From positions 1 through 55,413 of the forward strand of contig JAZNAU010000050.1 of NCBI GenBank assembly GCA_045586685.1: DNA of 55,413 nt, read 5' to 3'. Source of the stretch: Clostridia bacterium (lineage in GTDB: Bacteria > Bacillota > Clostridia > HGM11514). Below are positions 1,898 through 55,413 of this stretch, piece after piece. The position numbers and the translations under genes are program-made. Position 1 is the first letter of the stretch, and each line of letters opens with the position of its first letter. The notes beneath the pieces were generated by a model, which saw only the letters and a list, made by a program, of their open reading frames with translations, was not told the origin of the DNA and did no database searches.

Positions 1898-1899
1898 GG

Positions 1900-9789: not shown

Positions 9790-9811
9790 GAAAGCGGAAG
9801 GAGGGGACAAA

Positions 9812-27611: not shown

Positions 27612-27911
27612 GTATAACGAAAACCGTGCGATAGTTCGCGTGGTGCAAAAAAGGTTAACCCATAAACAAAAATGAAACAGATAGATGTAAAGAATATAAG
27701 TAATATATCAAAATAAAAAGTTTACTATTGTTTTTCAGTGTGCAAAACAGGGAGGTGTTGTTCATACTTTTCGTTTTGTATGCCCTGTCGGGCGGGCCTG
27801 CTTTTGTGAGACAAAAGTAGCAATAAATATCCCCCCGTTATACGGGGGATATTTTGTATAAAAATTTCAATTTTACGTACAATAACAAAAAGCAATGTTA
27901 GGAAGTTGGCT

Positions 27912-28349: not shown

Positions 28350-28354
28350 AATTG

Positions 28355-28383
28355 GAATAAATCTTGTCTCTCTTGCATATATA
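28355..28383 (+). promoter_or_regulatory. sigma-E-like promoter
   Basis: GAATAAA-14 nt-CATATATA, the same spacing as the 9761 site. Confidence 0.5.
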
Positions 28384-28426
28384 AAGTAAAGGAAATGGTA
28401 ATATTTTACAAAGAGGTGGTTAAAAA

Positions 28427-40177: not shown

Positions 40178-41200
40178 ATGATCATTATTATGAAATCCCG
40201 TGCACCGAAGCAAGCTGTGGAAGCTATGATTTCATCTCTGGAAAACCAGGGAATGAAGGTGCAGATTAACACCGGTGTGGAATGTACGGTACTGGGTGTG
40301 TTGGGAAATACGCACGAGTTAAATAAAGCTCAGATTGAAATGAATCCTCAGGTAGAACGGGTTATGGCCGTTCAGGAGCCTTTTAAAAAGGCAAACAGAA
40401 AGTTTCATCCCGAGGATACGGTGATTACCATTGGAGATAAAACCATTGGCGGTGGAAATCTGGCGGTTATTGCAGGTCCTTGTTCAGTGGAAAGCGAAGA
40501 ACAGATTGTGGAAGTTGCAACCCGCGTGAAAGCGGCAGGAGCGGGATTTTTACGTGGCGGCGCATTTAAGCCTCGTTCTTCTCCCTATGCATTTCAAGGC
40601 TTGGGAACAGATGGGTTAGAGTTGTTGGATGAAGCAAGAAACATGACAGGACTTCCTGTTGTTTCCGAATTAACTTCTTTGCGTCATCTGGATCGGTTTG
40701 TGGAAATGGTAGACGTGATTCAGATTGGTGCAAGAAACATGCAGAATTTTGAGTTGCTTCGTCAGGTTGGTAAAACAAGAAAGCCTATTTTATTAAAGCG
40801 GGGTATGTCCAGCACCATCGAAGAACTTCTTCTTTCTGCTGAATACATAATGTCTGAAGGAAATGAGCAGGTGATTCTTTGTGAACGAGGAATCAGAACC
40901 TTTGAAACAGTTACCAGAAATACGCTGGATTTATCTGCAGTACCTATTTTAAAACGATTAAGCCACTTGCCTGTTGTGGTCGACCCCTCTCATGCTACCG
41001 GTCTTGCATGGATGGTGGAGCCTATGTCTATTGCAGCAGCAGCAGTGGGGGCAGATGGTTTGATTGTGGAAGTACACAACAATCCTTCCTGTGCGTTGTG
41101 TGATGGAAAACAATCCATTACACCGGATGAATTTGATGTTTTGATGAAAAAGCTGAAAATTGCCAGCCGAATTCACGAGGAGGCCGAAAATGAGCAATGA
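40178..41200 (+). CDS. aroF: DAHP synthase, type I-beta with N-terminal regulatory domain
   Basis: IAGPCSVES; RGGAFKPR; QIGARNMQNF; LCERGIRTF; DPSHATG. Confidence 0.95.
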   Translation: MIIIMKSRAPKQAVEAMISSLENQGMKVQINTGVECTVLGVLGNTHELNKAQIEMNPQVERVMAVQEPFKKANRKFHPEDTVITIGDKTIGGGNLAVIAGPCSVESEEQIVEVATRVKAAGAGFLRGGAFKPRSSPYAFQGLGTDGLELLDEARNMTGLPVVSELTSLRHLDRFVEMVDVIQIGARNMQNFELLRQVGKTRKPILLKRGMSSTIEELLLSAEYIMSEGNEQVILCERGIRTFETVTRNTLDLSAVPILKRLSHLPVVVDPSHATGLAWMVEPMSIAAAAVGADGLIVEVHNNPSCALCDGKQSITPDEFDVLMKKLKIASRIHEEAENEQ

Positions 41201-42335
41201 ACTGGAAGATCTGAGACGAGAGATTGACCAAATCGACCGTCAACTGATTGCTCTTTTTGAACAGCGTTTTGCAGTAACATCCCGTGTGGGAGAATTAAAA
41301 AGTAAAACTGGGAAACCTGTGTTTGATCCTAAACGGGAAAAGGCAGTTGTGAAGGACAGATTAGCACGTGTGCAAAATTCGGAAAATAAAGCAGCGATAA
41401 ACAGCCTGTTTGAAATGATGATGGCAAACAGCCGTCAAGGACAACGAAAAACCTGTCGTGCAGGAATTGAAAATTTGATGCAGTCCTTGCCTGTATGCAA
41501 TGAGGTCGCATTGTCCGAGGGAGCGGTTGTTGCCTATGGCGGTGTGGAAGGAAGCTTTGGAGAAGAGGCATTGCTTCATTTTTTCGGTGAAAACACAAAT
41601 CGGACAGGATTTCCCTATTTTTCTCAGGTCATTGATGCAGTTCGTTGCGGAGAGGCAGAATACGGTGTTTTGCCCATTGAAAATTCTTCTACGGGTGCTG
41701 TCATAGAAGCCTATGATTTGCTCCGTGACAGTGGGTGTTATATTGTGGGGGAAGTAAAGCTCCCTATTCGTCATTGCCTGCTGGGTCTTCCTGAGGCGGA
41801 TATGCAAACGATTCAAAAAGTATATTCTCATCCTCAGGGTTTAGCACAAAGCAGTCAATTTTTACAGAAGCATTCCAATTATCAGTGTGTGTCCTATTTA
41901 AATACGGCAATGAGTGCGAAATTGGTGCGGGACAGCGATGATTTGTCTTTGGCGGCAATCGGCAGTAAACGGTGTGCCCAGACTTATGGACTGAAGGTAT
42001 TGGCAGAGGGAATCAACAATTCTTTGCATAATCATACTCGATTTGTGATTATTTCAGGAAAGAGTTTATTTTCAGAGCAAGCCAATAAAATCAGTATTTG
42101 CTTTGATTTGGCTCATACAACAGGTTCACTGTACCAGATTTTGACGTTTTTTTCCATTAACAAAATCAATTTATTAAAACTGGAATCCCGTCCTATACCC
42201 GAAAAAAATTGGGAATACAGCTTCTTTATTGATTTTGAAGGAAATTTAAAGGAACAGGCGATTCAGGATACCCTTTGTTCTGTGGTGGACGAAGTCAGCC
42301 GATTCCGCTATTTAGGAAATTACATTTGTGGATAA
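41190..42335 (+). CDS. pheA: Chorismate mutase / prephenate dehydratase
   Basis: LRREIDQID chorismate mutase domain; PIENSSTG; SHPQGL; NHTRF; KLESRP ACT domain. Confidence 0.93.
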   Translation: MSNELEDLRREIDQIDRQLIALFEQRFAVTSRVGELKSKTGKPVFDPKREKAVVKDRLARVQNSENKAAINSLFEMMMANSRQGQRKTCRAGIENLMQSLPVCNEVALSEGAVVAYGGVEGSFGEEALLHFFGENTNRTGFPYFSQVIDAVRCGEAEYGVLPIENSSTGAVIEAYDLLRDSGCYIVGEVKLPIRHCLLGLPEADMQTIQKVYSHPQGLAQSSQFLQKHSNYQCVSYLNTAMSAKLVRDSDDLSLAAIGSKRCAQTYGLKVLAEGINNSLHNHTRFVIISGKSLFSEQANKISICFDLAHTTGSLYQILTFFSINKINLLKLESRPIPEKNWEYSFFIDFEGNLKEQAIQDTLCSVVDEVSRFRYLGNYICG

Positions 42336-42349: not shown

Positions 42350-42375
42350 AAATCTCCCGAAAACGGGAGATTTTT
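42350..42375 (+). terminator. Terminator after pheA
   Basis: AAATCTCCCG-aaaa-CGGGAGATTTTT. Confidence 0.85.
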
Positions 42376-42464
42376 GTTGTTTTAAAGGTCTTACTTGTAG
42401 CTTAAGTTTCGTTGCTCTGGGGCATAGGCTTTTGATGATAGTGCAAGTCATAGCAACTTTTTTA

Positions 42465-42521
42465 TGTTATAATAAAACTATAGGGGCAAGAAAGGGATTC
42501 GTTTTTACGGGTTCCTTTTTT
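42465..42521 (+). promoter_or_regulatory. Extended -10 promoter and terminator-like leader hairpin of the phage-like operon
   Basis: TGTTATAAT (42465-42473) with a poor -35 (AAGTCA); then AAGGGATTCGT-tttt-ACGGGTTCCTT followed by T residues. Confidence 0.5.
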
Positions 42522-42554: not shown

Positions 42555-43865
42555 ATGTTTGACCAAATGCTCAGACGGATGCGGAAGGTAGCGGAGCTTG
42601 AACCTACGGAAAGCCAAATGGAAGAACAGATTGGCTTATGGGGAAGGATGTATCGCAATCGGGCTCCCTGGTGCAAGGGGGATGTGCACAGTCTGAATCT
42701 TCCTGCGGTCATTGCGGGGGAAATTGCTGCAATGACAACCATGGAGTTTTCCTCCAATGTAACAGGCAGCAACCGGGCAAAATTTTTATCCAAACAGTAT
42801 GAGCCTGTCTTAAGAGACCTTCGAAAAATAACCGAATATGCTGTTGCCATGGGCGGAGTTGTGTTAAAGCCTTATGTGTCGGGTAAAACAATCGGGGTTG
42901 ATTGTGTACAGGCAGATTCCTTTTTACCAATCAGCTTTGACACCACCGGTCGTCTGACGGGGGCGGTGTTTGCCGATTGTTATGTATCGGGAAAAGCAGA
43001 ATACCTTCGGTTAGAACGCCATCTGCTGACAAAAGATGGGTATGAAATCTGTAACTTTGCTTATGAAAAGAGCGGAACAAGCTGGAAGGAAATTTCACTT
43101 TCTGCTGTTCCAAAATGGGCAGATTTGACCCGTAAAATGACAGTAGAAGGGATTGAGAAACCTCTATTTGCTTACTTAAAAATGCCCGGTGCCAATATGG
43201 TGGATACAAGCTCCCCCTTAGGGGTTTCTGTGTATCAGAGAGCGATCGATTTGATTGAGCAGGCTGACCGACAGTATTCCCGTCTGTTATGGGAATTTGA
43301 AGGGGGCGAGCTTGCTATTGACGCCAGTGCAGAAGCCTTGGGCTATGACCGTGACGGAAAAGCTGTTATGCCAAAGCTAAACCGCCGTTTGTTCCGTGGA
43401 TTGGAAATTGATGCAGGCGGACAGGACTTATACAGTGTTTTCTCCCCTCAGTTGAGAGATGAATCTCTGATAAACGGCTTAAATGAAATCTTAAGCCGGA
43501 TTGAGGATGCCTGCGGTCTGGCACGGGGAACGATATCTCACCCTGAAGGAGAAATCCGCACTGCTACAGAGCTCAAAATGATGCGTCAGCGGTCTTATAC
43601 TACTGTCCGTGATATTCAAAAATCCATTGCGACGGCGTTACAGGATTTGCTGGACGCCATGGATGTATGGACCGATGTGTACGAGCTGGCAGCAAAGGGA
43701 AATTGGGAAGTGTCATTTCGGTTTGATGATTCGGTTCTTACAGACCGCAGTCAGGAATTTGCAGAGAAAAAACAGCTGGTAGAGGCGGGGATTATGTTTC
43801 CTTGGGAATTTCGGATGTGGTATCTGGGCGAGAGTGAGGAGCAGGCAAAGGAGGTATTCAAGTGA
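42555..43865 (+). CDS. Phage portal protein (A118-type)
   Basis: SLNLPAVIAGEIA; SSPLGVSVY; WEFEGG; FSPQLRD; RTATELK; FDDSV; RBS AAGGAG. Confidence 0.85.
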   Translation: MFDQMLRRMRKVAELEPTESQMEEQIGLWGRMYRNRAPWCKGDVHSLNLPAVIAGEIAAMTTMEFSSNVTGSNRAKFLSKQYEPVLRDLRKITEYAVAMGGVVLKPYVSGKTIGVDCVQADSFLPISFDTTGRLTGAVFADCYVSGKAEYLRLERHLLTKDGYEICNFAYEKSGTSWKEISLSAVPKWADLTRKMTVEGIEKPLFAYLKMPGANMVDTSSPLGVSVYQRAIDLIEQADRQYSRLLWEFEGGELAIDASAEALGYDRDGKAVMPKLNRRLFRGLEIDAGGQDLYSVFSPQLRDESLINGLNEILSRIEDACGLARGTISHPEGEIRTATELKMMRQRSYTTVRDIQKSIATALQDLLDAMDVWTDVYELAAKGNWEVSFRFDDSVLTDRSQEFAEKKQLVEAGIMFPWEFRMWYLGESEEQAKEVFK

Positions 43866-44212
43866 ATCAGGAATTTTTATCCGGCTTAGGGCTGGAGGAA
43901 GAAACGGTAACACAGATTTTGGAAGAGTATGACAGAGAACGTCAGGAAACTGCGTTTCAAAACGAGCTTTACAAACAACTGGAGCTTGCGGGTGCAAAAT
44001 CTGTAAAAGCGGCGGTTGCGTTGCTGGATTGTGAAGGAATGTCTTTGGAGGAGGGCAATATTTCGGGTCTTTCTGAACAACTGTCCGTTCTCAAAGAGGA
44101 GCATCCCTACTTATTTCAGACTCAGCTTCCCCGTGCAGTAGCAAGCACAATGGGCGGCGGAGAATCGGAAAAATCTCTTTTTTCGGTAATTCGTTCTGCT
44201 GCCGGACTTTAA
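43862..44212 (+). CDS. Capsid scaffolding protein (Gp20-like), shortened
   Basis: EFLSGLGLEEE; AGAKSVKAAVALLD; GLSEQL..LKEEHPYLF; GTGA overlap with the portal gene. Confidence 0.75.
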   Translation: MNQEFLSGLGLEEETVTQILEEYDRERQETAFQNELYKQLELAGAKSVKAAVALLDCEGMSLEEGNISGLSEQLSVLKEEHPYLFQTQLPRAVASTMGGGESEKSLFSVIRSAAGL

Positions 44213-44239
44213 TTTAAAATCGAAAGGATATGATAGTTT

Positions 44240-45112
44240 ATGGCAAATTCAATTACGTTAGCAGATAAATTTTTACCCATGGTGGACGAAATTTATAAGG
44301 AACAGTCTGTGACAGAATGTCTGGACACCACCTCACAGCCCGATGTAAGCGGTGCAGACGAGGTGCAAATTTTGAAAATTTCCACTACCGGTCTGGGAGA
44401 TTATTCCCGTGAAACAGGGTATCCTCAGGGAGATGTTACTGCCTCCTGGGAAACCTTGCAACTGACTGAAGAACGAGGCAAGGAATTTTCTATTGACAGA
44501 ATGGATGACGAGGAAATGCTGGGGGTTGCTTTTGGTACACTCACCGGTTCTTTTGTCAGAGAACAGGTTGTTCCAGAGCTGGATGCTTACCGTTTTGCAA
44601 AATATGCATCCACTGAAGGAATTTCCTCTGCATCAGAAGATCTGACCGCAGAAACCGTTTTGGCGGCCATTGATGAAGCAACCCGTCAGATGGATGAGGA
44701 CGAGGTGCCTCAGACAGGAAGAATTCTGTTTGTCAGCAGTGAGTTGAAGCCTCTTCTGAACAGTGCACTGACTCGTACATGGACCAGTCAGGGAAATGTC
44801 AGCACGGTGCTGACCACTTATAACGATATGGTAGTAAAATATGTTCCGAAGGGTCGTTTTTACAGCAAAACCACTATTAACGACGGCTCGTCTGAATGGG
44901 GATATACAAAGGCAGAGGATGCCAAGGATATTAACTTTATGATAGTGTATCCCCCTTCTGTTGTTCAGGTAAAAAAAGTAATGATTCCTAAAATCTTTAC
45001 CCCTGACCAGAATCAGGAGAAGGATGCCTGGAAGTTCCAGTTCCGTCTGTATCACGATGCTTTTGTTCTGGAAAATAAGAAAAAAGGCGTTTATCTCCAT
45101 ACTGTAGCGTAA
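44240..45112 (+). CDS. Major capsid protein
   Basis: MANSITLADKF..DEIY; GLGDYSR..GY; FSIDRMD.EE; VVPELDAYRF; YHDAFVLENKKKG; follows the scaffold gene. Confidence 0.82.
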   Translation: MANSITLADKFLPMVDEIYKEQSVTECLDTTSQPDVSGADEVQILKISTTGLGDYSRETGYPQGDVTASWETLQLTEERGKEFSIDRMDDEEMLGVAFGTLTGSFVREQVVPELDAYRFAKYASTEGISSASEDLTAETVLAAIDEATRQMDEDEVPQTGRILFVSSELKPLLNSALTRTWTSQGNVSTVLTTYNDMVVKYVPKGRFYSKTTINDGSSEWGYTKAEDAKDINFMIVYPPSVVQVKKVMIPKIFTPDQNQEKDAWKFQFRLYHDAFVLENKKKGVYLHTVA

Positions 45113-45126
45113 AGGAGTGATGCCGT

Positions 45127-45450
45127 ATGTACGCGGATTTTACTTATTATACAGACGTCTTTCACGGTAGAAAAATCCCGGACAGCGACAGTTTTCTTTC
45201 TGTAGCAGCGGGGGCGGGAGCAGCACTTGACCGTCTTACCTTTGGCAGGTTGACTCAATCCACTCCCGGTGCGGCAGATGCTCTTTGTGCGGTATGTGAA
45301 GTATTTTATACTCGATTACACCGAGAAGGAATTAAATCGGAAAGTGTGGACGGGTACAATGTGACTTACTCCGATGAAGGATTGAGCAGAAATTTACGGC
45401 AAACGGTACGTCTTTATCTGGAACCTGCTTTGCTGTATCGGGGATGTTAG
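45127..45450 (+). CDS. Head-tail adaptor (connector) protein
   Basis: MYADFTYY; LDRLTFGR; SESVDGYNVTY; LLYRG; follows the capsid gene. Confidence 0.7.
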   Translation: MYADFTYYTDVFHGRKIPDSDSFLSVAAGAGAALDRLTFGRLTQSTPGAADALCAVCEVFYTRLHREGIKSESVDGYNVTYSDEGLSRNLRQTVRLYLEPALLYRGC

Positions 45451-45460
45451 GAGGGATTGG

Positions 45461-45790
45461 ATGGTTTGGAACCAAACGGTCACCCTGTTTCACAAGGAGA
45501 TTGAAAACCGTAAGGAAAGTTGGACTTCTCAGGTGTATCGGGGTGTATCCGCTGTGACGGTGCAAAAATCATCTCCTTATTCAATGGGTATGGAGCCGGA
45601 CAATCAACTGATTGCCCAGATTCCCCATAAGGCGTTACTCAATATTGCACCGGGGGATCGTTTACTGTTGGGAGAACATACCGTACAGGTGGATTCTTCT
45701 GAATTTCAAAAGGCTTTTGTTGTGGTAAGTGTAACAGATAATCGCCGTGGACAAGGAGAACTTTGGCATTATAAGGTGGTGTGTCAATGA
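45461..45790 (+). CDS. Putative head-closure protein
   Basis: TVTLF; PGDRLLLG; VTDNRRG..HYKV; assigned mainly by position. Confidence 0.55.
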   Translation: MVWNQTVTLFHKEIENRKESWTSQVYRGVSAVTVQKSSPYSMGMEPDNQLIAQIPHKALLNIAPGDRLLLGEHTVQVDSSEFQKAFVVVSVTDNRRGQGELWHYKVVCQ

Positions 45791-46176
45791 TTGTTTGCAA
45801 CCTTATTTTAAATAGTACAGCCAAAATATTAGAAAAAAGGGGACTGACCCCAAAAGGAGCTATTCAAAAAAGACTGGATCAGGAAGTTGAGCTGAAATGC
45901 CGTCCGTACGTTCCCCGTAAAGATGGATATCTGGAACAAAGCGGAACAGCTTCTTTTCCCTCTATTGGCTTTGTTCAATGGGATAGACCCTATGCGAAAT
46001 ATCAGTATTATGGCTATTTAATGTTGGGAAAGAAAACTAAAATTTTGACCGGAATCCCCTTAAAAAGCCGTGGCGGTGGATTGCGTGGCTCCCGATGGTT
46101 TGAGCGAATGAAAATAGACTGTATCGGGTCCATTGTACAGTCCCTTGCCAAACTGGCAGGAGGGAAAGAAAAATGA
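45787..46176 (+). CDS. Neck/tail-completion protein (A118 'minor capsid' family)
   Basis: YVPRKDGYL; PYAKYQYYG; GSRWFERMK; ATGA overlap. Confidence 0.7.
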   Translation: MIVCNLILNSTAKILEKRGLTPKGAIQKRLDQEVELKCRPYVPRKDGYLEQSGTASFPSIGFVQWDRPYAKYQYYGYLMLGKKTKILTGIPLKSRGGGLRGSRWFERMKIDCIGSIVQSLAKLAGGKEK

Positions 46177-46583
46177 GTATCTTAGAACATATTAGAGATT
46201 TTATTGCCCAGTGTCCTTTGTTGACAGATGGCTGTATTCACATGGATTTTTTGGATGACAGAATGTATGGTTATATGTTAGAGGGTGTACCTGTAGCAGA
46301 GGTGGTACGGCGGTATGCAGACGGAGGAAGTGTTCGTCGCTATGAGTTTGTATTTGGTGCAAGGCTTCCTTACGGAAGCAGTCAGACCGCTGAAAATCAT
46401 CACTTTTATCAGCAGTTTTCTCAATGGCTGGAGCAACAGTCAAATGCCGGAATATTTCCCGAGCTGGGAGAGGGAAAAGTGCCTCACAGTATAAAGGCAT
46501 TGTCCCATGGTTATTTAATGGACGGTGATGGAAACTGCGCCAGATACCAGATTCAATGTGAACTGGAATATTATCAGGATTAG
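46173..46583 (+). CDS. Putative tail terminator protein
   Basis: IRDFIAQCP; RRYADGGS; FSQWLEQQ; ARYQIQCELEY; precedes the tail tube gene. Confidence 0.6.
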   Translation: MSILEHIRDFIAQCPLLTDGCIHMDFLDDRMYGYMLEGVPVAEVVRRYADGGSVRRYEFVFGARLPYGSSQTAENHHFYQQFSQWLEQQSNAGIFPELGEGKVPHSIKALSHGYLMDGDGNCARYQIQCELEYYQD

Positions 46584-46594
46584 GAGGAAATCAA

Positions 46595-47080
46595 ATGAAA
46601 GGAAATATTGTTCAACGTGCTAAAAAATTAGCATTTTACGGTGTTCCGGGGGAAGGCGAGGTTGTGTTTCACAGAATGAAGGGATTTACCAAACTGGAAA
46701 CAGAAAAAAATCCCAGTGAATACAGCCGTCAATATGTGGATGAGATGTTTGAAGAAACAGATGTAACGGGCTACAGCCCTTCTGTTTTGTATGAATTTGA
46801 CCGGTATGTGGATGATCCGGTACATCAGGATATGGTATTGCTGACGGACAGGGAAATGATTGGAGATGACGCAGTCAGAACACTGATTATGGCGGATTTG
46901 GCAGTACCCAATGAAAATGGTAGTTTCCCTGCTATTATGAGGGATTTTGCGGTTATTCCCGATAGCGAAGGTGATGGAACTGATGCATATATCTATACCG
47001 GCTCTTTTCGTGCAAAGGGAGAAAAGGTGATTGGGACCGTTCAGATTACCGGTGAAGTTGCGGTCTTTACCGAACAGTAA
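46595..47080 (+). CDS. Major tail (tube) protein
   Basis: GFTKL..NPSEYSRQYVDE..TGYSPS; 161 aa; RBS AGGAGG; position in the operon. Confidence 0.7.
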   Translation: MKGNIVQRAKKLAFYGVPGEGEVVFHRMKGFTKLETEKNPSEYSRQYVDEMFEETDVTGYSPSVLYEFDRYVDDPVHQDMVLLTDREMIGDDAVRTLIMADLAVPNENGSFPAIMRDFAVIPDSEGDGTDAYIYTGSFRAKGEKVIGTVQITGEVAVFTEQ

Positions 47081-47093
47081 GCAGGTGAGAAAA

Positions 47094-47417
47094 ATGCAGA
47101 CCATGAAATTTCAATTTGGAGAACTGAAACAACAGATAGATTTATCAGATGTGGATTTTGTATTGAGATATGAACAGGCAATTACAGACTACGAAGAAGG
47201 AGTCAAGGGGTTGAACCGTGAGGTTGCTCCTTCTGCTCAACTAGAGCAAGTGTGTCAGTTGTTTTTCTCAATGTTTGACAAACTGTTTGGTGAAGAAAGT
47301 GCAAAGAAAATGTTTGGAGAAACCAAAAGCGTTGCCCTTTGTACAAAAGCATTTACCCAGTTGCTTCGCGCTATGAATCAATACGCCGGCGCTCTAAAGA
47401 AAGAGGACAAGATATGA
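47094..47417 (+). CDS. Tail assembly chaperone
   Basis: D..DVDFV.RYE; FDKLFGEESAKKMFG; lies between the tube and Gp15 genes. Confidence 0.6.
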   Translation: MQTMKFQFGELKQQIDLSDVDFVLRYEQAITDYEEGVKGLNREVAPSAQLEQVCQLFFSMFDKLFGEESAKKMFGETKSVALCTKAFTQLLRAMNQYAGALKKEDKI

Positions 47418-47950
47418 ATTTTTGGGTAACGCCTTTACCCACCACGGTGACAATCGGAGGAAAGGAGTATCCGATTTATACTGACTTTCGTGTATGGGTA
47501 AAGTGCGGGATGCTGTTAGAGCGAGAGAAAAATCCTATTTCACTGGCGGTGGAGTTGCTGACTCTTTGTTATCCGGCTCTGCCCCCCTCGTTTGAGGGGG
47601 CAATGGAAGGAATTTTTTCCTTTTATACCGGTCAAAATCAAACAAAAAGGGACGGAGCAAAAAGTAAACCTCTTTATAGTTTTGACTATGATGGAGATTT
47701 GATTTATGCCGCCTTTTACAGTCAATACGGAATTGATTTGGCACATGCCTCCCTGCATTGGTATCAATTTCGGGCATTATTTGCAGGCTTAGAAGAAAAC
47801 AGCCGATTTGCTGAGGTGCTTGGTGCAAGAGAAATCAATCTTAGTAAAATTTCTGATCCGGCACAAAAGGCGTATTATAGAAAGTTAAAAGCAAACTATC
47901 ATCTGCCGACGGAGGTTGATGCGGCAGATGGATTGGAGGCTCTGTTTTGA
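47414..47950 (+). CDS. Gp15-family phage protein (A118)
   Basis: LPTTVTIGGKEYPIYTDFR; YSFDYDGDLIYAAFYSQYGIDL; LHWYQFRALF. Confidence 0.85.
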   Translation: MNFWVTPLPTTVTIGGKEYPIYTDFRVWVKCGMLLEREKNPISLAVELLTLCYPALPPSFEGAMEGIFSFYTGQNQTKRDGAKSKPLYSFDYDGDLIYAAFYSQYGIDLAHASLHWYQFRALFAGLEENSRFAEVLGAREINLSKISDPAQKAYYRKLKANYHLPTEVDAADGLEALF

Positions 47951-48001
47951 TCAGCTCACGGCAAAAACAGAAAAAAATTTGTGAGCAGAAGGGTTGATGT
48001 T

Positions 48002-48988
48002 ATGAGTGACGGTGCAATCGTTATATCCACAGAATTGAATACGGATGATTTTATCGCTGCCTTGGAAGGCTTGGCGGGTCTTGCAAGAAGTGCCATGGAA
48101 AAGGTGGTTGGTGTGTTTACAGAGCTTAAGGATCGGGTTGTTCAAGCTTTGTATAATGCCAAAGAAATGCTTTTAACGGCGGCCACAAGCTGGTTGGAAG
48201 GATTGGGATTGGCAGCAAGCTATGCAAAGGAATTTGTATTTACCACTTTGGGACAAATGATTACAAACGTGGTTAATAATTTGCTGGGGAATGCGAAATC
48301 GCTGTTATCAGCCGCAGCCAACTTTTTTCAAGGCTTGCCAACAGCGGCAACTCAGAAGGGGACTGCCTGCCTGCAAGCGTTAGGCAATTTAATCACTCAA
48401 ATTTTAAATACGGTAATCAGTTCTTCGGAGCGTATGCTGGCGACGGCATTCTCCTTTTTTCAGGGGATTGTAACAGCAGTCAGCGGAATTACCAATAATG
48501 TATTGACAACACTGGGAAGTCTCATCAGTCTGGCAGTGACAAAGGTTAAGGAAGGATATACGCAAATGTTTGAAGCAGGAAAACAGTTAGCCTCCGGAAT
48601 CTGGGACGGAATTACATCTATAGCATCCGGCTGGTATGAGAATATTTCCACTTTGGTTAGCGGCTTGGTTACTTCGGCAAAAAATGCAGTTACCGCAGGA
48701 TTTGGCGGTGTGACATCTTTTATCGGAAAAAGTCTGTCCAATTCCGGTTTTTCAGTACCAAACAATTTTTTCAATAGTGGGTCAAGTAATGTATCAGGAA
48801 TTTCCAATGCCAATTTATTGCCGACAATAAGCACATTTTCTTCTTCAAACGGAAATTCAGGTGGCATTACAAATGTAAATCATTATAATACCACGTATCA
48901 ATTTGTTCCTGCTAACGGGTCTATTTCTGATCAGATTCGTACTGCAAGAGCACAGGATCAGATTAACCGATTGAGAGGAGGACTTTAA
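48002..48988 (+). CDS. Very short tape-measure protein
   Basis: MSDGAIVISTEL N-terminus; amphipathic 44-aa repeats; lies between Gp15 and Dit. Confidence 0.75.
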   Translation: MSDGAIVISTELNTDDFIAALEGLAGLARSAMEKVVGVFTELKDRVVQALYNAKEMLLTAATSWLEGLGLAASYAKEFVFTTLGQMITNVVNNLLGNAKSLLSAAANFFQGLPTAATQKGTACLQALGNLITQILNTVISSSERMLATAFSFFQGIVTAVSGITNNVLTTLGSLISLAVTKVKEGYTQMFEAGKQLASGIWDGITSIASGWYENISTLVSGLVTSAKNAVTAGFGGVTSFIGKSLSNSGFSVPNNFFNSGSSNVSGISNANLLPTISTFSSSNGNSGGITNVNHYNTTYQFVPANGSISDQIRTARAQDQINRLRGGL

Positions 48989-49824
48989 TGACAGAGTTTA
49001 AGTTTCAAAACGAATACGGCACATTACAACTAAACAAAAAACCTTGTCGCGTTCTATCGGTTGTGGGCTTAGGGCTTCCAGATAGGGAATTTGAAACGGT
49101 ACGATATGCCAATTCTCACGGACAGGAAACTCTGTCTGTCACCGATCAGCCGAGAATTATCAGTATGTCCGTAGATTTGTTAATGAAGGAAGGCTTGGGA
49201 CGGGAGCTTGCAAAAATGACAAAAATCTTATACCGTCCCGGAACTCTTACTGTAAGAAGTCGAGGAAAAACAAGAGTTATTCCCTGTCGGTGTACTGCTT
49301 GGGAAGAGGATACTCGTACTCCTGTTCTTGCAAAGCTGGTATTACAATTTACTTGTGATAATCCCGCATTTTTAGAGGAGAGGGAACGAATTGAGGGGGT
49401 CTTTGAACGGACTGATTTAATTCATGATTCCTTTGTTCTTCCTATGGTATTTACAAAACGGACCACAGAAAAGGATGTAGTAAATAACGGAGATTTACCC
49501 GTTCAGCCTGTTTTATTGTTAAAATGCATTCAAACAGGGACGGAGGGAATAAAAATCACTAATTGCACTCCATCAGGAGAGGAACAGACTTTTGCACTAA
49601 CAACCCCTATGCTGGTTGGAGAAGAAATTCAGGTGGATTTTCCAAACCGACGGATAGAATCTAACATGAGAGAGAATGTCATTCACTTTATTTCAGACGA
49701 TACGTTTCTCCATTCCTTTGTGTTAGAGCAGGGATGTAATCGTATTAACGTATCATCAGGGGTCGGAGCGGATTTATCTATAGTTTGTAAATTTACTCCA
49801 AAATATTTAGAAGCTTTGTACTAG
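48988..49824 (+). CDS. Distal tail protein (Dit)
   Basis: GLGLP..GQ..PRII; LQFTCDNPAF; VNNGDLPV; LEQGCNRI; follows the tape-measure gene. Confidence 0.75.
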   Translation: MTEFKFQNEYGTLQLNKKPCRVLSVVGLGLPDREFETVRYANSHGQETLSVTDQPRIISMSVDLLMKEGLGRELAKMTKILYRPGTLTVRSRGKTRVIPCRCTAWEEDTRTPVLAKLVLQFTCDNPAFLEERERIEGVFERTDLIHDSFVLPMVFTKRTTEKDVVNNGDLPVQPVLLLKCIQTGTEGIKITNCTPSGEEQTFALTTPMLVGEEIQVDFPNRRIESNMRENVIHFISDDTFLHSFVLEQGCNRINVSSGVGADLSIVCKFTPKYLEALY

Positions 49825-49833
49825 GAGGTGCCT

Positions 49834-50991
49834 ATGGAGGATATACGTTTTTACAATTTTGAAGGACAGCTTCTTTCCATTGTTCATGATGTAGTGTCCG
49901 TAAATTGGCGAATTTGCTATAATGACGTGGGCACCTTTGAGGCTCATTTTAATTTACAGTCTTCTTTTGTTCCCGAGATTGCACTTACGCCGTGGTTAGT
50001 TGCGGTTCAAGGGAGATTGCAAGCCATCATTACAGGACGGCAAATGGGAGAAGAACTAATTTTATATGGAAAAACACCAAACTGGTTGTTATGCAAACGA
50101 GGGATTCCTCCTTTTGTTACAGGGGATATGACAGAAGGAGCGGGACTTACAGTCCCTCAGATTGTAAGCTGGGTGTTTTCTAAGGCTTTTGATAGTAACG
50201 ATCCTGTTACGGAGGAAGCAGCAATGGGAGAATTTTTAAAAGAACCCATTTCCTTTTGGAGAAATACTACCAATCAGGCATTTGAAGTGATTCGTGACTG
50301 TGCAGACAGGGAGAATGCGGGGCATCGGATTTGGTTTGAGCCAAAAACAGGAACCTGGCATTTTCAATTATATAAGGGAAATGAGCTTCCTGTTATGTTA
50401 AGTGAGGATAACCGAAATGCGTATGAAACGGAATACACCGAGGATGTTTCAGAGCTGGCAACGGCAGGATGGTACGGCCGGGAGATTGTTTCCCGAGGAG
50501 ATTACAATCCGGTCATAAATAAACCTAAATTAAAAAACGGATTGCCGGAAAATTTAGGAAAGTATTATCAGGTAACCCAAAACGGCTCCCGATTCGGTCT
50601 GACAATGAAGGAGGGAGAGTACCTTCTTTGTGATTCCGAGGAAGGAAGTTGGAGAATTGTGGATGGTGATGAAATTCAAAAGCTGGATTGTATCTGGCTG
50701 AAACTCAATGGAGATTCTTCTGCAACAGGAATTTATCGTTGGGATGAAATCCTTTCTGCTCAGACCGAAAGCGAGGCACAAGATGAGCTTACCAAGAAAA
50801 AACGAATTCAAAATATTTCTTTGGTTACTCGTGGCATGGAATATGGTAAAGATTATCATCTTGGAGATATCCTACGGGTGCAAAAAACAGCAGGCGGAGT
50901 ACAATTTACCCAGAAAAAACGGGTTGTTGCAGTAAATATTTGGTACGAACAGGGCAATTCAGGTCAGCAACCTGAATTTTCTGAACAATAA
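49834..50991 (+). CDS. Baseplate hub / tail tip protein (ReqiPepy6 Gp37-like)
   Basis: SVNWRICYNDVGTFE; FQLYKG; YGKDYHLGDIL; follows Dit. Confidence 0.7.
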   Translation: MEDIRFYNFEGQLLSIVHDVVSVNWRICYNDVGTFEAHFNLQSSFVPEIALTPWLVAVQGRLQAIITGRQMGEELILYGKTPNWLLCKRGIPPFVTGDMTEGAGLTVPQIVSWVFSKAFDSNDPVTEEAAMGEFLKEPISFWRNTTNQAFEVIRDCADRENAGHRIWFEPKTGTWHFQLYKGNELPVMLSEDNRNAYETEYTEDVSELATAGWYGREIVSRGDYNPVINKPKLKNGLPENLGKYYQVTQNGSRFGLTMKEGEYLLCDSEEGSWRIVDGDEIQKLDCIWLKLNGDSSATGIYRWDEILSAQTESEAQDELTKKKRIQNISLVTRGMEYGKDYHLGDILRVQKTAGGVQFTQKKRVVAVNIWYEQGNSGQQPEFSEQ

Positions 50992-51003
50992 AGGAGGTAG
51001 AAT

Positions 51004-51813
51004 ATGGGAATTATATTGGATTTTGCAGATAATGTAACTTATGGGGCGTCGGATTTGAACTCCTTGCGATCTGCCCTTGCCACAAAAGGAGTATTGCCTG
51101 AAATGTCCAGCTCTTGTAAGGCGATATTGGGCGAACAGGAAGGAACAGTAAAAATTTGTGCCGGACAGGCTCTTTTTTCAGACGGCTCCAGATGCAATGT
51201 TGACGAGGCGGGCGTTACAATTACCGTAAAGGATACTTGCTATATTTATTTTAAAAAGCTGGAAAACAGTGTGGAAGTCATGTCCTCAGGATCTCTTCCT
51301 ACAGGGGGAGATACGGTCTTACTTGCTCAGGCAACGGTTGCAACCGCAGGAATTACTTTAACAGATATGCGGGAATACACGGTGCTTAAAATTCCTTCCT
51401 GTACTGTAAATACTTATGATGAGTTTATCCTAAAAAAAAACTTTAATGATGCCACTGTAAAAAGTTATGATCCCTCTGCTTCTCTAACCATTGCTACATG
51501 GCATAAAGTACATGAATTCGATGTAAGTAATCAAAATTATAAATATGTTTGTGTGTTTGATAATGCAGAAAAAGTAAATAACAAGGTTTTTCTTGCATGG
51601 GGAGATATCAACAAGGGAAAATACTGGACATCCTACACCGTGGACAATACAAGTACGTTAGAATATGGCATTGATGAGATGATACTGTATCATGATTATA
51701 CCGGCACCAGACGTCTTCGTTTTGTAAAGAATGGTGCTAAGATTGAGATTTATTATTACTGTACCTTAGGGCAGTTGTCTTATTATTTTGATGCAAAAGT
51801 TCGTTTTGCGTAA
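51004..51813 (+). CDS. Putative baseplate / receptor-binding protein
   Basis: TYGASDLN..GV; VKICAGQA; LLAQ..ITLTDMR N-terminal module; aromatic beta-rich C-terminus. Confidence 0.5.
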   Translation: MGIILDFADNVTYGASDLNSLRSALATKGVLPEMSSSCKAILGEQEGTVKICAGQALFSDGSRCNVDEAGVTITVKDTCYIYFKKLENSVEVMSSGSLPTGGDTVLLAQATVATAGITLTDMREYTVLKIPSCTVNTYDEFILKKNFNDATVKSYDPSASLTIATWHKVHEFDVSNQNYKYVCVFDNAEKVNNKVFLAWGDINKGKYWTSYTVDNTSTLEYGIDEMILYHDYTGTRRLRFVKNGAKIEIYYYCTLGQLSYYFDAKVRFA

Positions 51814-51827
51814 AGGGGAGTGAAAAT

Positions 51828-53144
51828 ATGGCAAGATATGAAGCAAAGCTTGATATTGGCGGAGAATTTGAAGCAAGTTTTTCCCTGCCGTTATTTACCG
51901 GTGATTCGGGGAATAGTGTTGCTCTTGAATTTTATAATCGGGGAAAGGCTTACGATATGAGCGGTGCGATGATTTATGCCAGACGGGGAGATGGAACCGT
52001 TCTGGCAACTTCAGGAGTAACACAAGGGAACAAAGCGGAGTTTACTTTGTATAATAACATGTACTCTTATCCGGGAGAGCTGCAGGTGCAGGTATCTGTA
52101 GTTGATGTTTATGGGAATTTTTTGACCAGCGGTGTATTGTATTTTACGGTACAAGAAGGGTTTTCTGAGCAGTCGGAAGGGGAGGGAAGCAATGATTTTT
52201 GCAATCTGACTTCCTTGATTAGACAAGTAGGGGAAGGCTTGAGCCAAATTGAACGGGCGGAATCTGCTTCTAATAAGATTGAGTCCTTTTTACAGTCAAT
52301 TGAAAATAGTAAGATTGAACAATTATCAGAATCCGAAGTAGATACATTTCTAGAAGGATATGCCATTGTTACAAGTGATATTTCGTCAGATTCGAATCTT
52401 GTTACCGGAAAACAAAAATGGTTGCTTTTTGCAAGTTTTACTAGTGAACTGGTAAATCGTTATGAAGTTTCGCAGTTAAGATATTATGAAAATAAGTGGC
52501 AAAAGCGAAGCGGACTATGTTTTGAAGGACTGACGGGAGATTGGAATTGTAGTTGGGATGATTGGTCTGACGTAATACCAGATAATCTCATAACCTACAA
52601 AGGTTCTAAACCCTACTATTCAAATTTACCTACTATAGATAATTCTGTTGGTGATGTGTGGAATGTTTTGTATCCAAGCGAAGTATCAATAAAGGCTATG
52701 CCGATTACCGTAACTGATGTTTCATATGAGGAACAAAAAGATGTTTTTGAAGCCATGGGAAGTACCAAGAACTATAAGGACTTTGAAGTAGTAGCGTTAG
52801 AACATGAAGGATTTATCTATAATTCTAATGGACAAAAGGTAGCAAATGGATTTTTTGTCTATTATGATGGTGGTTTTTGTATTTTGTATCTTTCGAATAT
52901 TATAGAAAGAGGAGATTATTATTTTTACTTTATTGATGAATCACTTAGCCAATATCATACAGATTTCTTAAAGTTATACGAAACTGGTGAAGATTGTAAA
53001 TTTATTTGGAATGGTAACGAATGGGAGACCTTTACAGGCAATATGTCAAAGTATGCTACTAAAGATGAAATTGGTGACATCGAAACCGCTCTAACCGAAA
53101 TCGAAGCCCTTCAAAATTCTTACATAGGCGGTGATAGTGCATGA
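51828..53144 (+). CDS. BppU-like baseplate / tail-fibre protein with variable C-terminus
   Basis: N-terminal GDSG..RRGDG..PGELQVQV BppU-like domain; fibre motif YKGS..LP..GDVWNV. Confidence 0.6.
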   Translation: MARYEAKLDIGGEFEASFSLPLFTGDSGNSVALEFYNRGKAYDMSGAMIYARRGDGTVLATSGVTQGNKAEFTLYNNMYSYPGELQVQVSVVDVYGNFLTSGVLYFTVQEGFSEQSEGEGSNDFCNLTSLIRQVGEGLSQIERAESASNKIESFLQSIENSKIEQLSESEVDTFLEGYAIVTSDISSDSNLVTGKQKWLLFASFTSELVNRYEVSQLRYYENKWQKRSGLCFEGLTGDWNCSWDDWSDVIPDNLITYKGSKPYYSNLPTIDNSVGDVWNVLYPSEVSIKAMPITVTDVSYEEQKDVFEAMGSTKNYKDFEVVALEHEGFIYNSNGQKVANGFFVYYDGGFCILYLSNIIERGDYYFYFIDESLSQYHTDFLKLYETGEDCKFIWNGNEWETFTGNMSKYATKDEIGDIETALTEIEALQNSYIGGDSA

Positions 53145-53755
53145 GTATTGCAGAGAAATTGACAACCATTGCAGAGAATGTCCAAAAGGTGTATGAAGCA
53201 GGGGAAAAGTCGGAATATGATAGATTTTGGGATAATTTCCAACGGAATGGAGAGAAAATACCTTATACTTATGCTTTTCAATCTTCGCGTTGGAATGATG
53301 ATAATTATAACCCAAAATACCCTATCAATGCTTCTAACGCAACAAATATATTTGTGAACAATAAAAACATAACTGACACAAAAGTACCTATCATTCTAAC
53401 AGGAACAACGATTAACAATACATTCGCTTGGAGCGGTCTTGTAACAATAAGAGAATTGATAGTTGATGAAACTACAAAGCAAGCATCAAATGCTGCTGGA
53501 TTTATCGGTCTTTCTTCTTTGCAAAACTTAACAATTACAGGGACTATTGCGTTTGATTTAAATTTGATGTCAAGTCCTTTGACTACTGCAAGTGTGTTAA
53601 GTGTTTTAACGGCACTTACGAAAGATTCAACATTAGCAAGCGGAAGAACGGTGACATTTATGTCAGAATTGCAGGCAAGCATAGAAGCAGATATACAATG
53701 TGCTGAACAGATTGCATTAGCGGTTGCGTCAGGTTGGACGGTTGCTTATGCGTAG
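53141..53755 (+). CDS. Hypothetical phage protein, possible fibre-associated solenoid
   Basis: ATGA overlap; LRR/BspA-like spacing; LTTASVLSVL...GWTVA C-terminal cap. Confidence 0.5.
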   Translation: MSIAEKLTTIAENVQKVYEAGEKSEYDRFWDNFQRNGEKIPYTYAFQSSRWNDDNYNPKYPINASNATNIFVNNKNITDTKVPIILTGTTINNTFAWSGLVTIRELIVDETTKQASNAAGFIGLSSLQNLTITGTIAFDLNLMSSPLTTASVLSVLTALTKDSTLASGRTVTFMSELQASIEADIQCAEQIALAVASGWTVAYA

Positions 53756-53767
53756 GAGGTGTAAAAT

Positions 53768-53947
53768 ATGATTATTGATACCATTAAAGTTTTAAAGGCA
53801 GAGGAAGGTATGAGATTGACAGATGGTGACGTCATTGCTAAAGTCGTTCTGCTTCCTGAAAACAGAACTGAAGATGAATTTACAGAGATTACCCAAGCAG
53901 AAGCAGAAGAGAAAATGAAAGAGGTTGAGACAGATGGACTTGCATGA
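53768..53947 (+). CDS. Small 59-aa phage protein, absent from the ORF track
   Basis: RBS AGGAGGTG; MIIDTIKVLKAEEGMRLTDGDVIAKVVLLPENRTEDEFTEITQAEAEEKMKEVETDGLA; fills the gap between its neighbours. Confidence 0.75.
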   Translation: MIIDTIKVLKAEEGMRLTDGDVIAKVVLLPENRTEDEFTEITQAEAEEKMKEVETDGLA

Positions 53948-54236
53948 AAGAGTACAAGCATTAGAACATGATATTCCGAAAATGAGGGAACGTCTCTCTG
54001 CTTTGGAACAGGACGAAAAATCAGTACACAGAAGATTAGGAAATCTGGAACAGCTGACGGAAAGTGTTCATGTTATCGCAACAGAAATCAAAGCAATGCG
54101 GGAAGACGTGAACCAAATCAGGGAGGAGCTGAATACATTAAGAGGTAAGCCGGCAAAACGGATGGAGTTGGTGATTACCGCCTTGATTTCATCTGTTGTA
54201 ACCGGTTTGGTGAGCATGGCATTAAGGGGGTTTTGA
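53934..54236 (+). CDS. XhlA-like coiled-coil lysis accessory protein with a C-terminal TM helix
   Basis: Heptad coiled coil, then VITALISSVVTGLV; directly upstream of the holin. Confidence 0.6.
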   Translation: MDLHERVQALEHDIPKMRERLSALEQDEKSVHRRLGNLEQLTESVHVIATEIKAMREDVNQIREELNTLRGKPAKRMELVITALISSVVTGLVSMALRGF

Positions 54237-54237
54237 C

Positions 54238-54498
54238 ATGACACAAACAATCATTCGAACCATTGTGTTGGTGCTGGCAATTGGGAATCAACTATTGACC
54301 TCGTGGGGGAAAAACCCCTTGCCTTGGTCGGAAGAGGAATTGTACGAGGGCGTAAGTGCGGGGATTACGGCACTCTCCGCTCTGATTTCCTGGTGGAAAA
54401 ATAATTCTTTTACTAAGGAGGCACGGCTTGCTGACCAATATTTAAAAGCATTAAAGGCAGGTGAAAAAAATGGAAGTTGTAAAACAACTGGTGCCTGA
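54238..54498 (+). CDS. Holin, SPP1/XhlB family
   Basis: TIIRTIVLVLAIGNQLL..GKNPLP..SWWKNNSFTKEA..AD. Confidence 0.88.
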   Translation: MTQTIIRTIVLVLAIGNQLLTSWGKNPLPWSEEELYEGVSAGITALSALISWWKNNSFTKEARLADQYLKALKAGEKNGSCKTTGA

Positions 54499-55195
54499 AT
54501 CAAAATGGCCGATAAAATGTCCCTACGAAATGGTTCCAGAATTTGTGGTGGTGCATAATACTGCCAATGATGCCTCTGCAAGAAACGAAATTGCTTATAT
54601 GAACAGTAACGGAGAGTCTACCTCGTTTCATTATGCAGTGGATGATAAAGAGGCGGTTCAGGGAATTTTGGAATCCAGAACCGCATGGCATGCGGGGGAC
54701 GGTGCGGGAGAGGGCAATCTCAAAGGAATCGGCATTGAAATCTGTTACAGCTTAACGGGGGGCGAACGGTTTTTAAAGGCGGAGGACTTGGCGGCAGAAT
54801 TGATTGCCGATATTTTAAACCGTTACGGTTGGGACATTTCCCATGTGACCAAGCATCAGGATTATTCCGGAAAATATTGCCCCCACAGAACGTTAGATTT
54901 GGGTTGGGAACGATTTTTAAATAAAGTGAAAGACAGAATGGGAGGACTTAGTATGACCCAATACGAAGAATTAAAAGCATTGTTGCAGGGGATTGAGACA
55001 AGGCTCTCTGCCATAGAAGGCAAAATGATTTACAATTATATTGATAGCAATATGCCCGATTGGGCAAGACCCACCATTCAAAAGTTGGTGGATAAAAAAT
55101 TGTTGGTTGGCAACGAAAAGGGAGAGCTTGGTTTGACCGAGGAAATGCTCAAACTGTATGTTGTCAATGACAGAGCGGGATTATACAACGAATAA
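54470..55195 (+). CDS. Endolysin, N-acetylmuramoyl-L-alanine amidase (Amidase_2)
   Basis: VVHNTAND; SFHYAVDD; AWHAGDG; IGIEIC; HQDYSGKYCP; C-terminal PDWARPTIQKL..G module. Confidence 0.9.
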   Translation: MEVVKQLVPESKWPIKCPYEMVPEFVVVHNTANDASARNEIAYMNSNGESTSFHYAVDDKEAVQGILESRTAWHAGDGAGEGNLKGIGIEICYSLTGGERFLKAEDLAAELIADILNRYGWDISHVTKHQDYSGKYCPHRTLDLGWERFLNKVKDRMGGLSMTQYEELKALLQGIETRLSAIEGKMIYNYIDSNMPDWARPTIQKLVDKKLLVGNEKGELGLTEEMLKLYVVNDRAGLYNE

Positions 55196-55200
55196 ACAAA

Positions 55201-55235
55201 GGGGATTGTAGCAAATTTAGTTTGCTACAATCCCC
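55201..55235. repeat. Palindromic repeat family A copy 3, bidirectional terminator between the endolysin and metA
   Basis: GGGGATTGTAGCAAA-tttag-TTTGCTACAATCCCC. Confidence 0.75.
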
Positions 55236-55239
55236 TATA

Positions 55240-55413
55240 TTATTTTTTACTCACCTTTGAAATATCATAAGGCGTAATCTGATAAACGTAGTAATTGAGC
55301 CAGTTGGAGTAAAGGAGATTTGCATGAGAACGCCAAGTAACTTGCGGTTTCTTTTTAGGGTTATCATCGGGAAAGTAGTTTTTGGGCACAGCTATTTCCA
55401 ATCCTTTATCCAC
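55240..55413 (-). CDS. metA: Homoserine O-acyltransferase, C-terminal fragment (runs off the window edge)
   Basis: Manual translation: [57 protein letters not shown], the MetA C-terminal signature. Confidence 0.9.

Follow-up and report, generated by a model that had tools for sequence, protein, structure and literature searches.

Contig C50 of the metagenome-assembled genome G000, from a gut-type species of Clostridia (assembly GCA_045586685.1), is 55,413 nucleotides long and was analysed in full (hereafter, the window). At positions 42555–55195 it carries a cluster of 20 intact open reading frames (ORFs), all on the plus strand, which runs from a phage portal gene to an amidase gene between the host genes pheA and metA. 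Judging from the genes alone, this cluster is probably the operon for the structural and lysis proteins of a system that descends from a siphovirus, is domesticated and immobile, and resembles gene transfer agents (GTAs). The parts of this system would occupy five or more host chromosomal loci, linked by a common late-type promoter. The best reading of the sequences is a vertically inherited, multi-locus and co-regulated system of the GTA or PBSX type. The analysis added three components to what had been noticed in the window: a detached terminase, an activator accompanied by a repressor and a protease, and a regulon defined by its promoter.

The G000 assembly comprises 1.55 Mb in 56 contigs and is rated 97% complete; metA is truncated where contig C50 ends. 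Operon ORFs were assigned to families by Pfam and PHROG scans. The search for the major head protein covered 41 genomes and the family set held 12, with G000 counted in both. Cluster gene order in relatives was followed by tblastn of all window proteins against their contigs, and synonymous divergence (dS) and the ratio of nonsynonymous to synonymous divergence (dN/dS) were calculated by the Nei-Gojobori method for G000 against four of the genomes with the cluster.

The host genes press closely on both ends. pheA ends at 42335, 219 bp short of the portal ATG at 42555, and 44 bp separate the amidase stop codon at 55195 from the metA stop codon at 55240. Pfam and PHROG scans of the 20 ORFs and their flanks detected no integrase, terminase or replication gene between pheA and metA, no direct (att) repeats were found bracketing the cluster, and there is no tRNA nearby. 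As in GTAs, the phage structural genes thus come without replication, integration or excision genes of their own, and with host genes abutting both ends and the terminase and regulators elsewhere, this is not an intact temperate siphophage. The GC content of the cluster (42.3%) is close to that of the genome (41.0%), dipping to 33.9–36.9% in the C-terminal part of a gene for a 438-amino-acid protein and in the following gene, for a 204-amino-acid protein, which are the likely distal fibre genes. The original prediction, made from the letters of the window, had described 20 co-oriented ORFs in head–tail–lysis order, free of frameshifts and gene fragments, with gaps of about 220 and 45 bp to the host genes, no integrase, repressor or replication genes, no att repeats, and a host-like base composition outside the fibre genes. 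The ORF list, the family matches, the repeat search and the intactness of all 20 ORFs in several species bear this description out.

Both conservation of the locus in related genomes and a dN/dS far below 1, which that prediction implied, were found. The major head protein is present in 13 of the 41 genomes searched, G000 included. It occurs in each of the six further species of the genus and, family-wide, in 10 of 11 genomes apart from G000. The terminase-less cluster itself is kept in five of those six species (G001, G002, G003 and G006, plus G005 in fragments). G001 and G006 share the pheA context, with the same aroG–pheA junction and, in G006, one extra glycoside hydrolase gene in between; in G002 a complete portal–amidase unit stands amid other host genes, preceded by genes for oxidoreductases and a permease and followed by one of AraC type. 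All genes compared gave dN/dS values of 0.003–0.24, a range that holds even where dS reaches more than 1. The most constrained is the head protein (0.003–0.05), which is 98–100% identical in G001–G003 with dN/dS of 0.003–0.013. Against G001, dS was 0.30–0.69 for cluster genes and 0.37–0.65 for the host genes aroG, pheA, typA and GH4. Host-like dS combined with low dN/dS is the pattern of a resident element, not of a decaying remnant: the cluster is diverging with its host under purifying selection, as expected of a GTA, with G004 as the exception in the genus.

G004, which belongs to the same genus and is only 81% complete, was considered as a further carrier of the cluster and dropped. Its copies are 45–61% identical to the G000 proteins and adjoin replication and regulator genes, the mark of a phage-like relative. 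They are divided between two contigs (L038, G004:C151; L043, G004:C76), one with head protein (45%) and portal (52%), the other with the large terminase subunit (TerL, 61%) beside genes for a replication initiator, a D5-like regulator and a late activator of the Ltr type. This relative is perhaps a cousin of the domesticated element that is free-living.

The packaging motor missing from the cluster was located with the TerL of a related full phage in G028 as probe, which had a single full-length match in G000. This is the genome's one large terminase, at C38:10899–12341, with 480 amino acids counted from the conserved start; searches with PF04466 and PF03237 hit this same gene, and PF03354, another large terminase family, had no match in G000. 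It lies among host genes, with a Se/S-carrier gene (itself adjacent to typA) and an HTH-cupin-AMP-binding gene as its two neighbours, and no other phage genes were seen around it. Orthologues 78–93% identical occur in G001, G002, G003, G005 and G006. With a dN/dS of 0.04, and with the columns of the ATPase and nuclease motifs invariant in an alignment that includes phage copies, the gene has intact motifs and is kept under selection. A maximum-likelihood tree of 22 TerL sequences places those of the genus (6), of genus g3 (3) and of G004 in one clade (support 99/98) whose internal order it leaves unresolved; within the genus, the order of TerL matches the ranking by typA identity. No further portal (PF04860) or HK97-type capsid (PF05065) was detected in G000, and no paralogues of the cluster proteins were found there.

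Genus g3 (G008, G010) shows an intermediate layout. A unit of a winged helix–turn–helix (wHTH) gene, TerL and portal is followed by two host-type genes and then by the scaffold–amidase genes in the opposite direction. The two intervening genes encode a protein with a Cu_amine_oxidN1 domain and a GH3 hydrolase (L041, G010:C1:3700–19000; L039, G008:C26). The g3 tape measure was assigned by its place alone, a pairwise BLASTP comparison having given an E value of 1.6. A wHTH gene also directly precedes TerL in G005 and G006. These wHTH genes were considered as candidates for the small terminase and rejected, as the families that they match are DnaD-like and replication-initiator families and not terminase.

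The activators found ahead of TerL in G004 and in a further streamlined cluster belong to phrog_36, and a search of G000 with this family identified an Ltr-type activator gene of 129 amino acids at C5:20–409 (E 1.5e-19), at the start of contig C5 and followed by host genes. Its Pfam matches are weak, with DUF1492 at 21.8 bits against a cut-off of 21.5 and Sigma70_r4 below cut-off. In phages of Gram-positive bacteria, proteins resembling DUF1492 and Sigma70_r4 are among the families of late transcriptional regulators (Ltr), small proteins of about 15 kDa that bind ahead of the terS promoter and are sufficient for late-operon expression (PMC3753634). Orthologues of the activator, 71–94% identical, are present in exactly the five species that have both cluster and TerL, and none was found in G004. 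In G001, G002, G003 and G005 the activator gene is divergent from genes for an Xre-type HTH_3 repressor and a Peptidase_M78 (ImmA/IrrE) protein. G000 has such an Xre and Peptidase_M78 pair at the start of contig C42; with the activator on C5, the assembly evidently breaks inside the control region. Unlike its counterparts in phages, the activator gene is not adjacent to the late promoters. The original prediction that motor and regulators are supplied from elsewhere thus proved correct, in the form of two solitary genes, for TerL and for the Ltr-type activator, the second accompanied by Xre and ImmA. Its wider claim, of a domesticated particle-producing system, stands as regards domestication, which conservation, dN/dS and the scattered motor and regulators support; the particles themselves are a prediction from gene content.

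What ties these dispersed loci to the portal operon is a shared promoter motif. Inspection by eye revealed, ahead of portal as well as TerL and in several species, a 37-nt motif that combines an extended −10 box with a conserved element farther upstream; in the window it lies at 42441–42477 on the plus strand, and it precedes the portal gene in G001, G002, G005 and G006. A position weight matrix scan of both strands of G000 returned six sites with scores of 37.7–55.9, the next best scoring 22.9. They precede the portal operon, TerL, two DnaD-like wHTH genes and two short loci without a clear ORF. When a degenerate pattern was scanned over the 12 family genomes with at most two mismatches, 28 sites were recovered in five genomes (6, 5, 5, 4 and 8), and a reversed control pattern gave 0 in any genome. 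The pattern had no sites in G004, G006 or the other genera of the family; in G006 the motif is present by eye with a spacer one base longer. In genus g3 a different motif is shared by the regions before both operons, with a conserved hexamer at the same distance from the −10 box.

Directly downstream of 18 of the 28 sites are portal, TerL or wHTH genes: the portal operon (5), TerL (4), a wHTH gene followed by TerL (1), and wHTH paralogues of a first (5) and a second type (3). The others precede a short repeat-containing locus with no clear ORF (5), a conserved leader antisense to a host gene (2), or nothing recognisable (3). The loci are predicted from this motif to be co-regulated, and GTAs likewise have genes at dispersed loci, here with TerL, the activator with Xre/ImmA and the wHTH genes on other contigs.

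The two wHTH paralogues of G000, each behind its own copy of the promoter, lie at C30:13891–14646 on the plus strand (L134) and C34:~27899–28545 on the minus strand (L132). Their proteins match DnaD-like helicase-loader and replication-initiator families, and late-gene control of relatives of replication organizers is unusual. Directly after the C30 gene, on the same strand, is a gene for a membrane protein of the haemolysin-III family (C30:14690–15340; L134:2191–2841). A third wHTH type is the one directly upstream of TerL in G005 and G006, and in g3 the gene in that position encodes a 150-amino-acid HTH_36 version. The ORF-less sites of G000, at C33:~9800–10022 and C9:~78650–78791 (both minus strand; L169 and L159, with counterparts at L166, L170, L173, L183 and L157), are of two kinds. 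In the first, which is kept in G001, G003 and G005, short tandem repeats, three or four in number, accompany an AT-rich stretch and a terminator; in the second, kept in G002, a conserved leader with a hairpin extends, in antisense, into the 3′ end of a host gene for a 629-amino-acid protein. The regulon may include small RNAs or very short proteins encoded at these loci; Rfam had no family matching them or the portal leader.

Between promoter and portal ribosome-binding site lies a further element, a hairpin with a U-run at 42488–42521 (plus strand) that resembles a terminator. It folds with −22.1 kcal/mol (z −2.3), and its sequence is conserved in G001, G002, G003, G005 and G006; a consensus terminator scan did not list it. 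Its position and shape suggest additional control by read-through, reminiscent of the anti-termination control reportedly operating in the Caulobacter GTA.

Together, these components would form the following sequence of events. A signal would inactivate the Xre-type repressor, with the ImmA/IrrE-type protease as the probable agent in most species, and so release the solitary 129-amino-acid Ltr-type activator (DUF1492/sigma region-4-like), which would in turn switch on the shared promoter at its six sites in G000. Portal, short scaffold and major head protein would assemble into procapsids for the terminase to fill; since the system is not contiguous and no small terminase is recognisable in it, they would be filled mostly with cellular DNA. 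Neck proteins, a short tail (335-amino-acid tape measure) and a variable fibre module would complete the particle, and the XhlA-like protein, holin and amidase would lyse the producer cell. We infer this cascade, together with particle formation and packaging of host DNA; the order repressor–activator–six promoters is proposed because of the Ltr analogy, the co-occurrence of the parts and the lack of other late genes in the genome.

A bolder version holds that these genes constitute a working GTA of an undescribed lineage in an uncultured family of Clostridia, built from scattered siphovirus-derived genes under a shared late promoter, an Ltr activator and an Xre/ImmA switch. Local over-replication driven by the wHTH proteins could then feed the motor, in parallel with the Bartonella gene transfer agent, where run-off replication feeds packaging. 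We regard this version as a tentative possibility, with odds somewhat against it.

Several observations weigh against a domesticated GTA-like system. At ten of the 28 motif sites, no gene is recognisable downstream. PF03592 (Terminase_2), searched for as small terminase, had no match in G000. TerL has an N-terminal extension of about 78 amino acids, its N-terminal 96 amino acids are without a Pfam match, and the extension recurs in the phage-like copy of G004; against G001, the dS of TerL (0.91) is above that of host genes. The control module is of the phage type (Xre/ImmA/Ltr) and not a host regulator, in G006 it consists of the Xre repressor without an ImmA gene, and we infer its connection to the promoter motif from co-occurrence of the activator with the other parts and from analogy only. 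Cluster, TerL and activator all have different neighbours in G002, which could reflect past mobility rather than host rearrangement. G004 has no orthologue of the cluster, and its copy looks like a real prophage. The head protein is closer to copies from other families (60–67%) than to those of G004 and genus g3 (42–47%), a pattern that suggests exchange of modules with phages. All genomes compared are metagenome bins.

The strongest rival keeps the whole apparatus and changes its purpose. In it, the cluster encodes a defective phage of the PBSX kind that acts as a killer particle, possibly holding DNA without delivering it, and the benefit to the host lies in killing through the variable fibres. 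The logic of the genes would suit PBSX, with an Xre repressor, a small positive factor and a late operon that ends in an XhlA-like/holin/amidase cassette. The fibre region is hypervariable and low in GC, which points to swapping of the receptor-binding end. In G001 the counterpart of the 438-amino-acid protein (window gene within 51828–53755; L013:1–1002) matches residues 1–154 alone, at 94% identity, and the remainder is unrelated; in G002 the protein is 45% identical, and no homologues of the 204- and 59-amino-acid proteins were seen. PBSX-packaged DNA is not injected and the particles act in the manner of tailocins, as stated in a recent gut study (PMC12946183). On the other side, no sheath or other contractile-tail family is represented among the operon ORFs in Pfam or PHROG. 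Portal, scaffold, head protein and neck genes are all present, unlike in the tail-only clusters of F-type tailocins. The head protein is the most constrained gene and the terminase keeps its motifs under selection, which a need for the tail alone would hardly explain. Killing and DNA transfer are not separable by sequence alone, and we rate the killer particle as unlikely, though a contender to be taken seriously.

Much less probable is a helper-dependent element, productive only when a related phage like that of G004 supplies the missing functions. Such a phage-like copy does exist in the genus and has, besides regulators and a replication initiator, a TerL of 61% identity; relatives of the head protein at 60–67% identity occur in many other Clostridia, and PF03592 detected no small terminase in G000. 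The system nevertheless has its own terminase, activator, repressor, structural and lysis genes, is without the integrase, replication origin module and att sites of satellites, and is vertically inherited with host-like dS. An old, inert prophage that has not yet decayed, with the solitary TerL and regulators as unrelated leftovers, would account for the missing left arm of a typical prophage and for the shortened scaffold and tape measure in a small genome of 1.55 Mb, and is already disfavoured to the point of being very improbable by 20 ORFs that are intact in several species at dN/dS of 0.003–0.24 with dS up to more than 1, by a terminase and an activator conserved in the same five genomes, and by a promoter found at 28 sites against 0 for the control.

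The domesticated GTA-like system that we favour resembles several known elements without matching any of them. With RcGTA of Rhodobacter and Caulobacter it shares a phage-derived head–tail cluster that lacks integration and replication genes and is inherited vertically under purifying selection, the distribution of parts over several loci, a putative dedicated activator and a short tail. The window proteins, however, belong to SPP1/Firmicutes-type families, an assignment that gives no sign of common descent; the terminase, which sits inside the main RcGTA cluster, is here at a separate locus; and RcGTA is controlled by a host phosphorelay, whereas control here is of the phage-type Xre/ImmA/Ltr kind. 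PBSX of Bacillus subtilis likewise has a Gram-positive host, an Xre-type repressor with a small sigma-like positive factor, no propagation, and one late operon ending in XhlA-like, holin and amidase genes, the XhlA-like match being weak here. In PBSX a single contiguous locus includes the terminases and the tail is contractile, in contrast to the siphovirus-type tail (tube, tape measure, Dit, hub, no sheath) and the separate loci of TerL, activator and other regulon members described here.

FpGTA of Faecalibacterium, too, is a GTA-like element of gut Clostridia, with more than one operon, lysis and tail-fibre functions and near-ubiquity in its genus (PMC12946183). That element is podovirus-like, with TerS and TerL in operon I together with portal and capsid and a second operon 125 kb away (PMC12946183); ours is siphovirus-like, with a detached TerL and a six-promoter regulon. 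Temperate SPP1-like and Ltr-controlled siphophages share SPP1_portal, Phage_scaffold, Gp15, Dit, Holin_SPP1 and, here as a candidate, an Ltr-type activator of the promoter before the packaging genes (PMC3753634); the present system differs in having no integrase, contiguous replication or lysogeny module, TerS or gp7-like minor capsid protein, and in the dispersal of its late regulon.

GTAs with known gene sets are, to our knowledge, a handful, and almost all of them come from Alphaproteobacteria. The 2026 gut study describes GTA-like packaging as the commonest route of bacterial DNA into capsids in the human gut, common in Ruminococcaceae, Oscillospiraceae and Christensenellaceae, with most encoding loci unidentified and genes identified for Faecalibacterium only (PMC12946183). 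Full-text searches of the literature on GTAs in Clostridia, Firmicutes or Oscillospiraceae and on PBSX returned no description of such a build among the matches listed; for capsid-packaged bacterial DNA in Clostridia, the matches listed held only that study (PMC12946183) and one transductomics study in two versions. The operon, the detached terminase, the activator with repressor and protease, and the searchable motif provide a concrete and testable gene set for another lineage of Clostridia. Dispersal to this degree would be missed by standard prophage finders or labelled a remnant. It offers a natural example of a phage late regulon surviving its break-up, and bears on how domestication proceeds and how it can be recognised from sequence. 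If the proposal is true, such systems, along with compact clusters that have short tape measures, could explain part of the unassigned GTA-like packaging in gut Oscillospiraceae and Christensenellaceae.

Candidates for such compact clusters emerged among relatives of the head protein, of which 148 were confirmed in a collection of species-representative genomes; the best 80 of the 148 are mostly 60–67% identical and come from many Clostridia. Ordinary prophages account for part of them: a terminase stands upstream in some, one (L094) has a large minor capsid protein, and the gap at the tape measure is 4–5.4 kb. Four others (L049, L055, L078 and L082) are compact clusters of about 11–12 kb that run from an HTH-type small protein, a protein in the TerL position, portal, scaffold and head protein to tape measure, Dit and hub. 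The protein in the TerL position has 407–454 amino acids and is a Pfam-confirmed TerL in L049 and L055, and the tape measures have 362–541 amino acids. Host-type surface or transport genes adjoin L049, L055 and L082 on one side or both, and lysis genes were not seen beside any of the four. The clusters could represent additional GTA-like elements, likewise streamlined, from other lineages. In the full phage of G028 the order is TerS, TerL, portal, a minor capsid protein of 518 amino acids, a scaffold of 213 and the head protein, and the tape measure has 1544 amino acids; the window's scaffold and tape measure have 116 and 335. The nearest deposited phages are 42% identical in the head protein and 51% in TerL. 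Close homologues of the cluster are not complete prophages, then, which would have told against the original prediction: those at least 75% identical are all equally streamlined, and full phages are distant (<60%).

The operon forms a single unit bounded by two terminators. Upstream of it lie the host genes for DAHP synthase (aroG, 40178–41200; Pfam DAHP_synth_1) and chorismate mutase/prephenate dehydratase (pheA, 41160–42335, plus strand; PDT, CM_2, ACT). The pheA terminator, a 10-pair hairpin followed by a T-run, occupies 42350–42373 on the plus strand. The portal protein (42555–43865, 436 amino acids), its start fixed by the ribosome-binding site and by conservation, matches SPP1_portal and covers positions 28–471 of the 495 in phrog_533 (E 1e-111). 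It is followed by the short scaffolding protein (43862–44212, 116 amino acids; Phage_scaffold profile positions 85–152 of 170, phrog_194) and the major head protein (44240–45112, 290 amino acids; phrog_422, E 2e-81). The neck region comprises a head–tail adaptor (45127–45450; phrog_541, E 1e-16), a DUF6751 neck protein (45461–45790; Pfam DUF6751, phrog_3366), a Minor_capsid_2-like head–tail joining protein (45781–46176; PF11114, phrog_556) and a tail completion protein (46173–46583; phrog_3266, E 8e-38).

The product of 46595–47080 is probably the major tail (tube) protein, from its position between the tail completion and chaperone genes; its family, phrog_3099 (E 3e-37), is of unknown function. 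A DUF6673 protein (47031–47417; Pfam DUF6673, phrog_4450) takes the position of the tail chaperone; its start is uncertain, the codon at 47091 not being a start codon. The start of the next gene, for a Phage_Gp15 protein (47414–47950; Pfam E 8e-38), was corrected to the ATG at 47414, which overlaps the stop codon of the DUF6673 gene and is kept in four genomes. A programmed frameshift between these two genes was considered and rejected on account of this conserved, overlapping ATG.

The short tape measure (47981–48988, 335 amino acids) matched 14 PHROG families, 11 of them labelled tape measure; the matches fall on internal parts of proteins of 700–3100 positions, and the match to the tape measure of the G028 phage is weak. 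Next come the distal tail protein Dit (48988–49824; phrog_33 and a weak SPP1_Dit match) and a tail hub/Tal-like protein (49828–50991; Sipho_Gp37, phrog_538). The three proteins encoded at 51004–53755 (269, 438 and 204 amino acids) have no Pfam or PHROG match and are likely a fibre or receptor-binding module that varies between species. An ORF of 59 amino acids at 53768–53947, to which no function was assigned, matched no family and has a homologue in the G010 cluster. The lysis genes encode an XhlA-like coiled-coil accessory protein (53925–54236; phrog_1193 and phrog_937, E ~1e-7, Pfam XhlA sub-threshold), a holin (54238–54498; Holin_SPP1 E 3e-25, phrog_263) and an N-acetylmuramoyl-L-alanine amidase, the endolysin (54461–55195; Amidase_2 E 4e-21, phrog_3088 E 2e-70). 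A bidirectional terminator at 55200–55236, a hairpin of 16–17 pairs with T-runs on both strands, serves amidase and metA in common. The 3′ end of metA occupies 55240–55413 on the minus strand up to the contig end (Pfam HTS positions 251–298 of 298, E 4e-20).

Elsewhere in G000, fragments of two tyrosine recombinase genes stand at contig ends (C13:10–147 and C6:26016–26348), in addition to two full-length Xer-like genes; the fragments could be marks of unassembled mobile elements.

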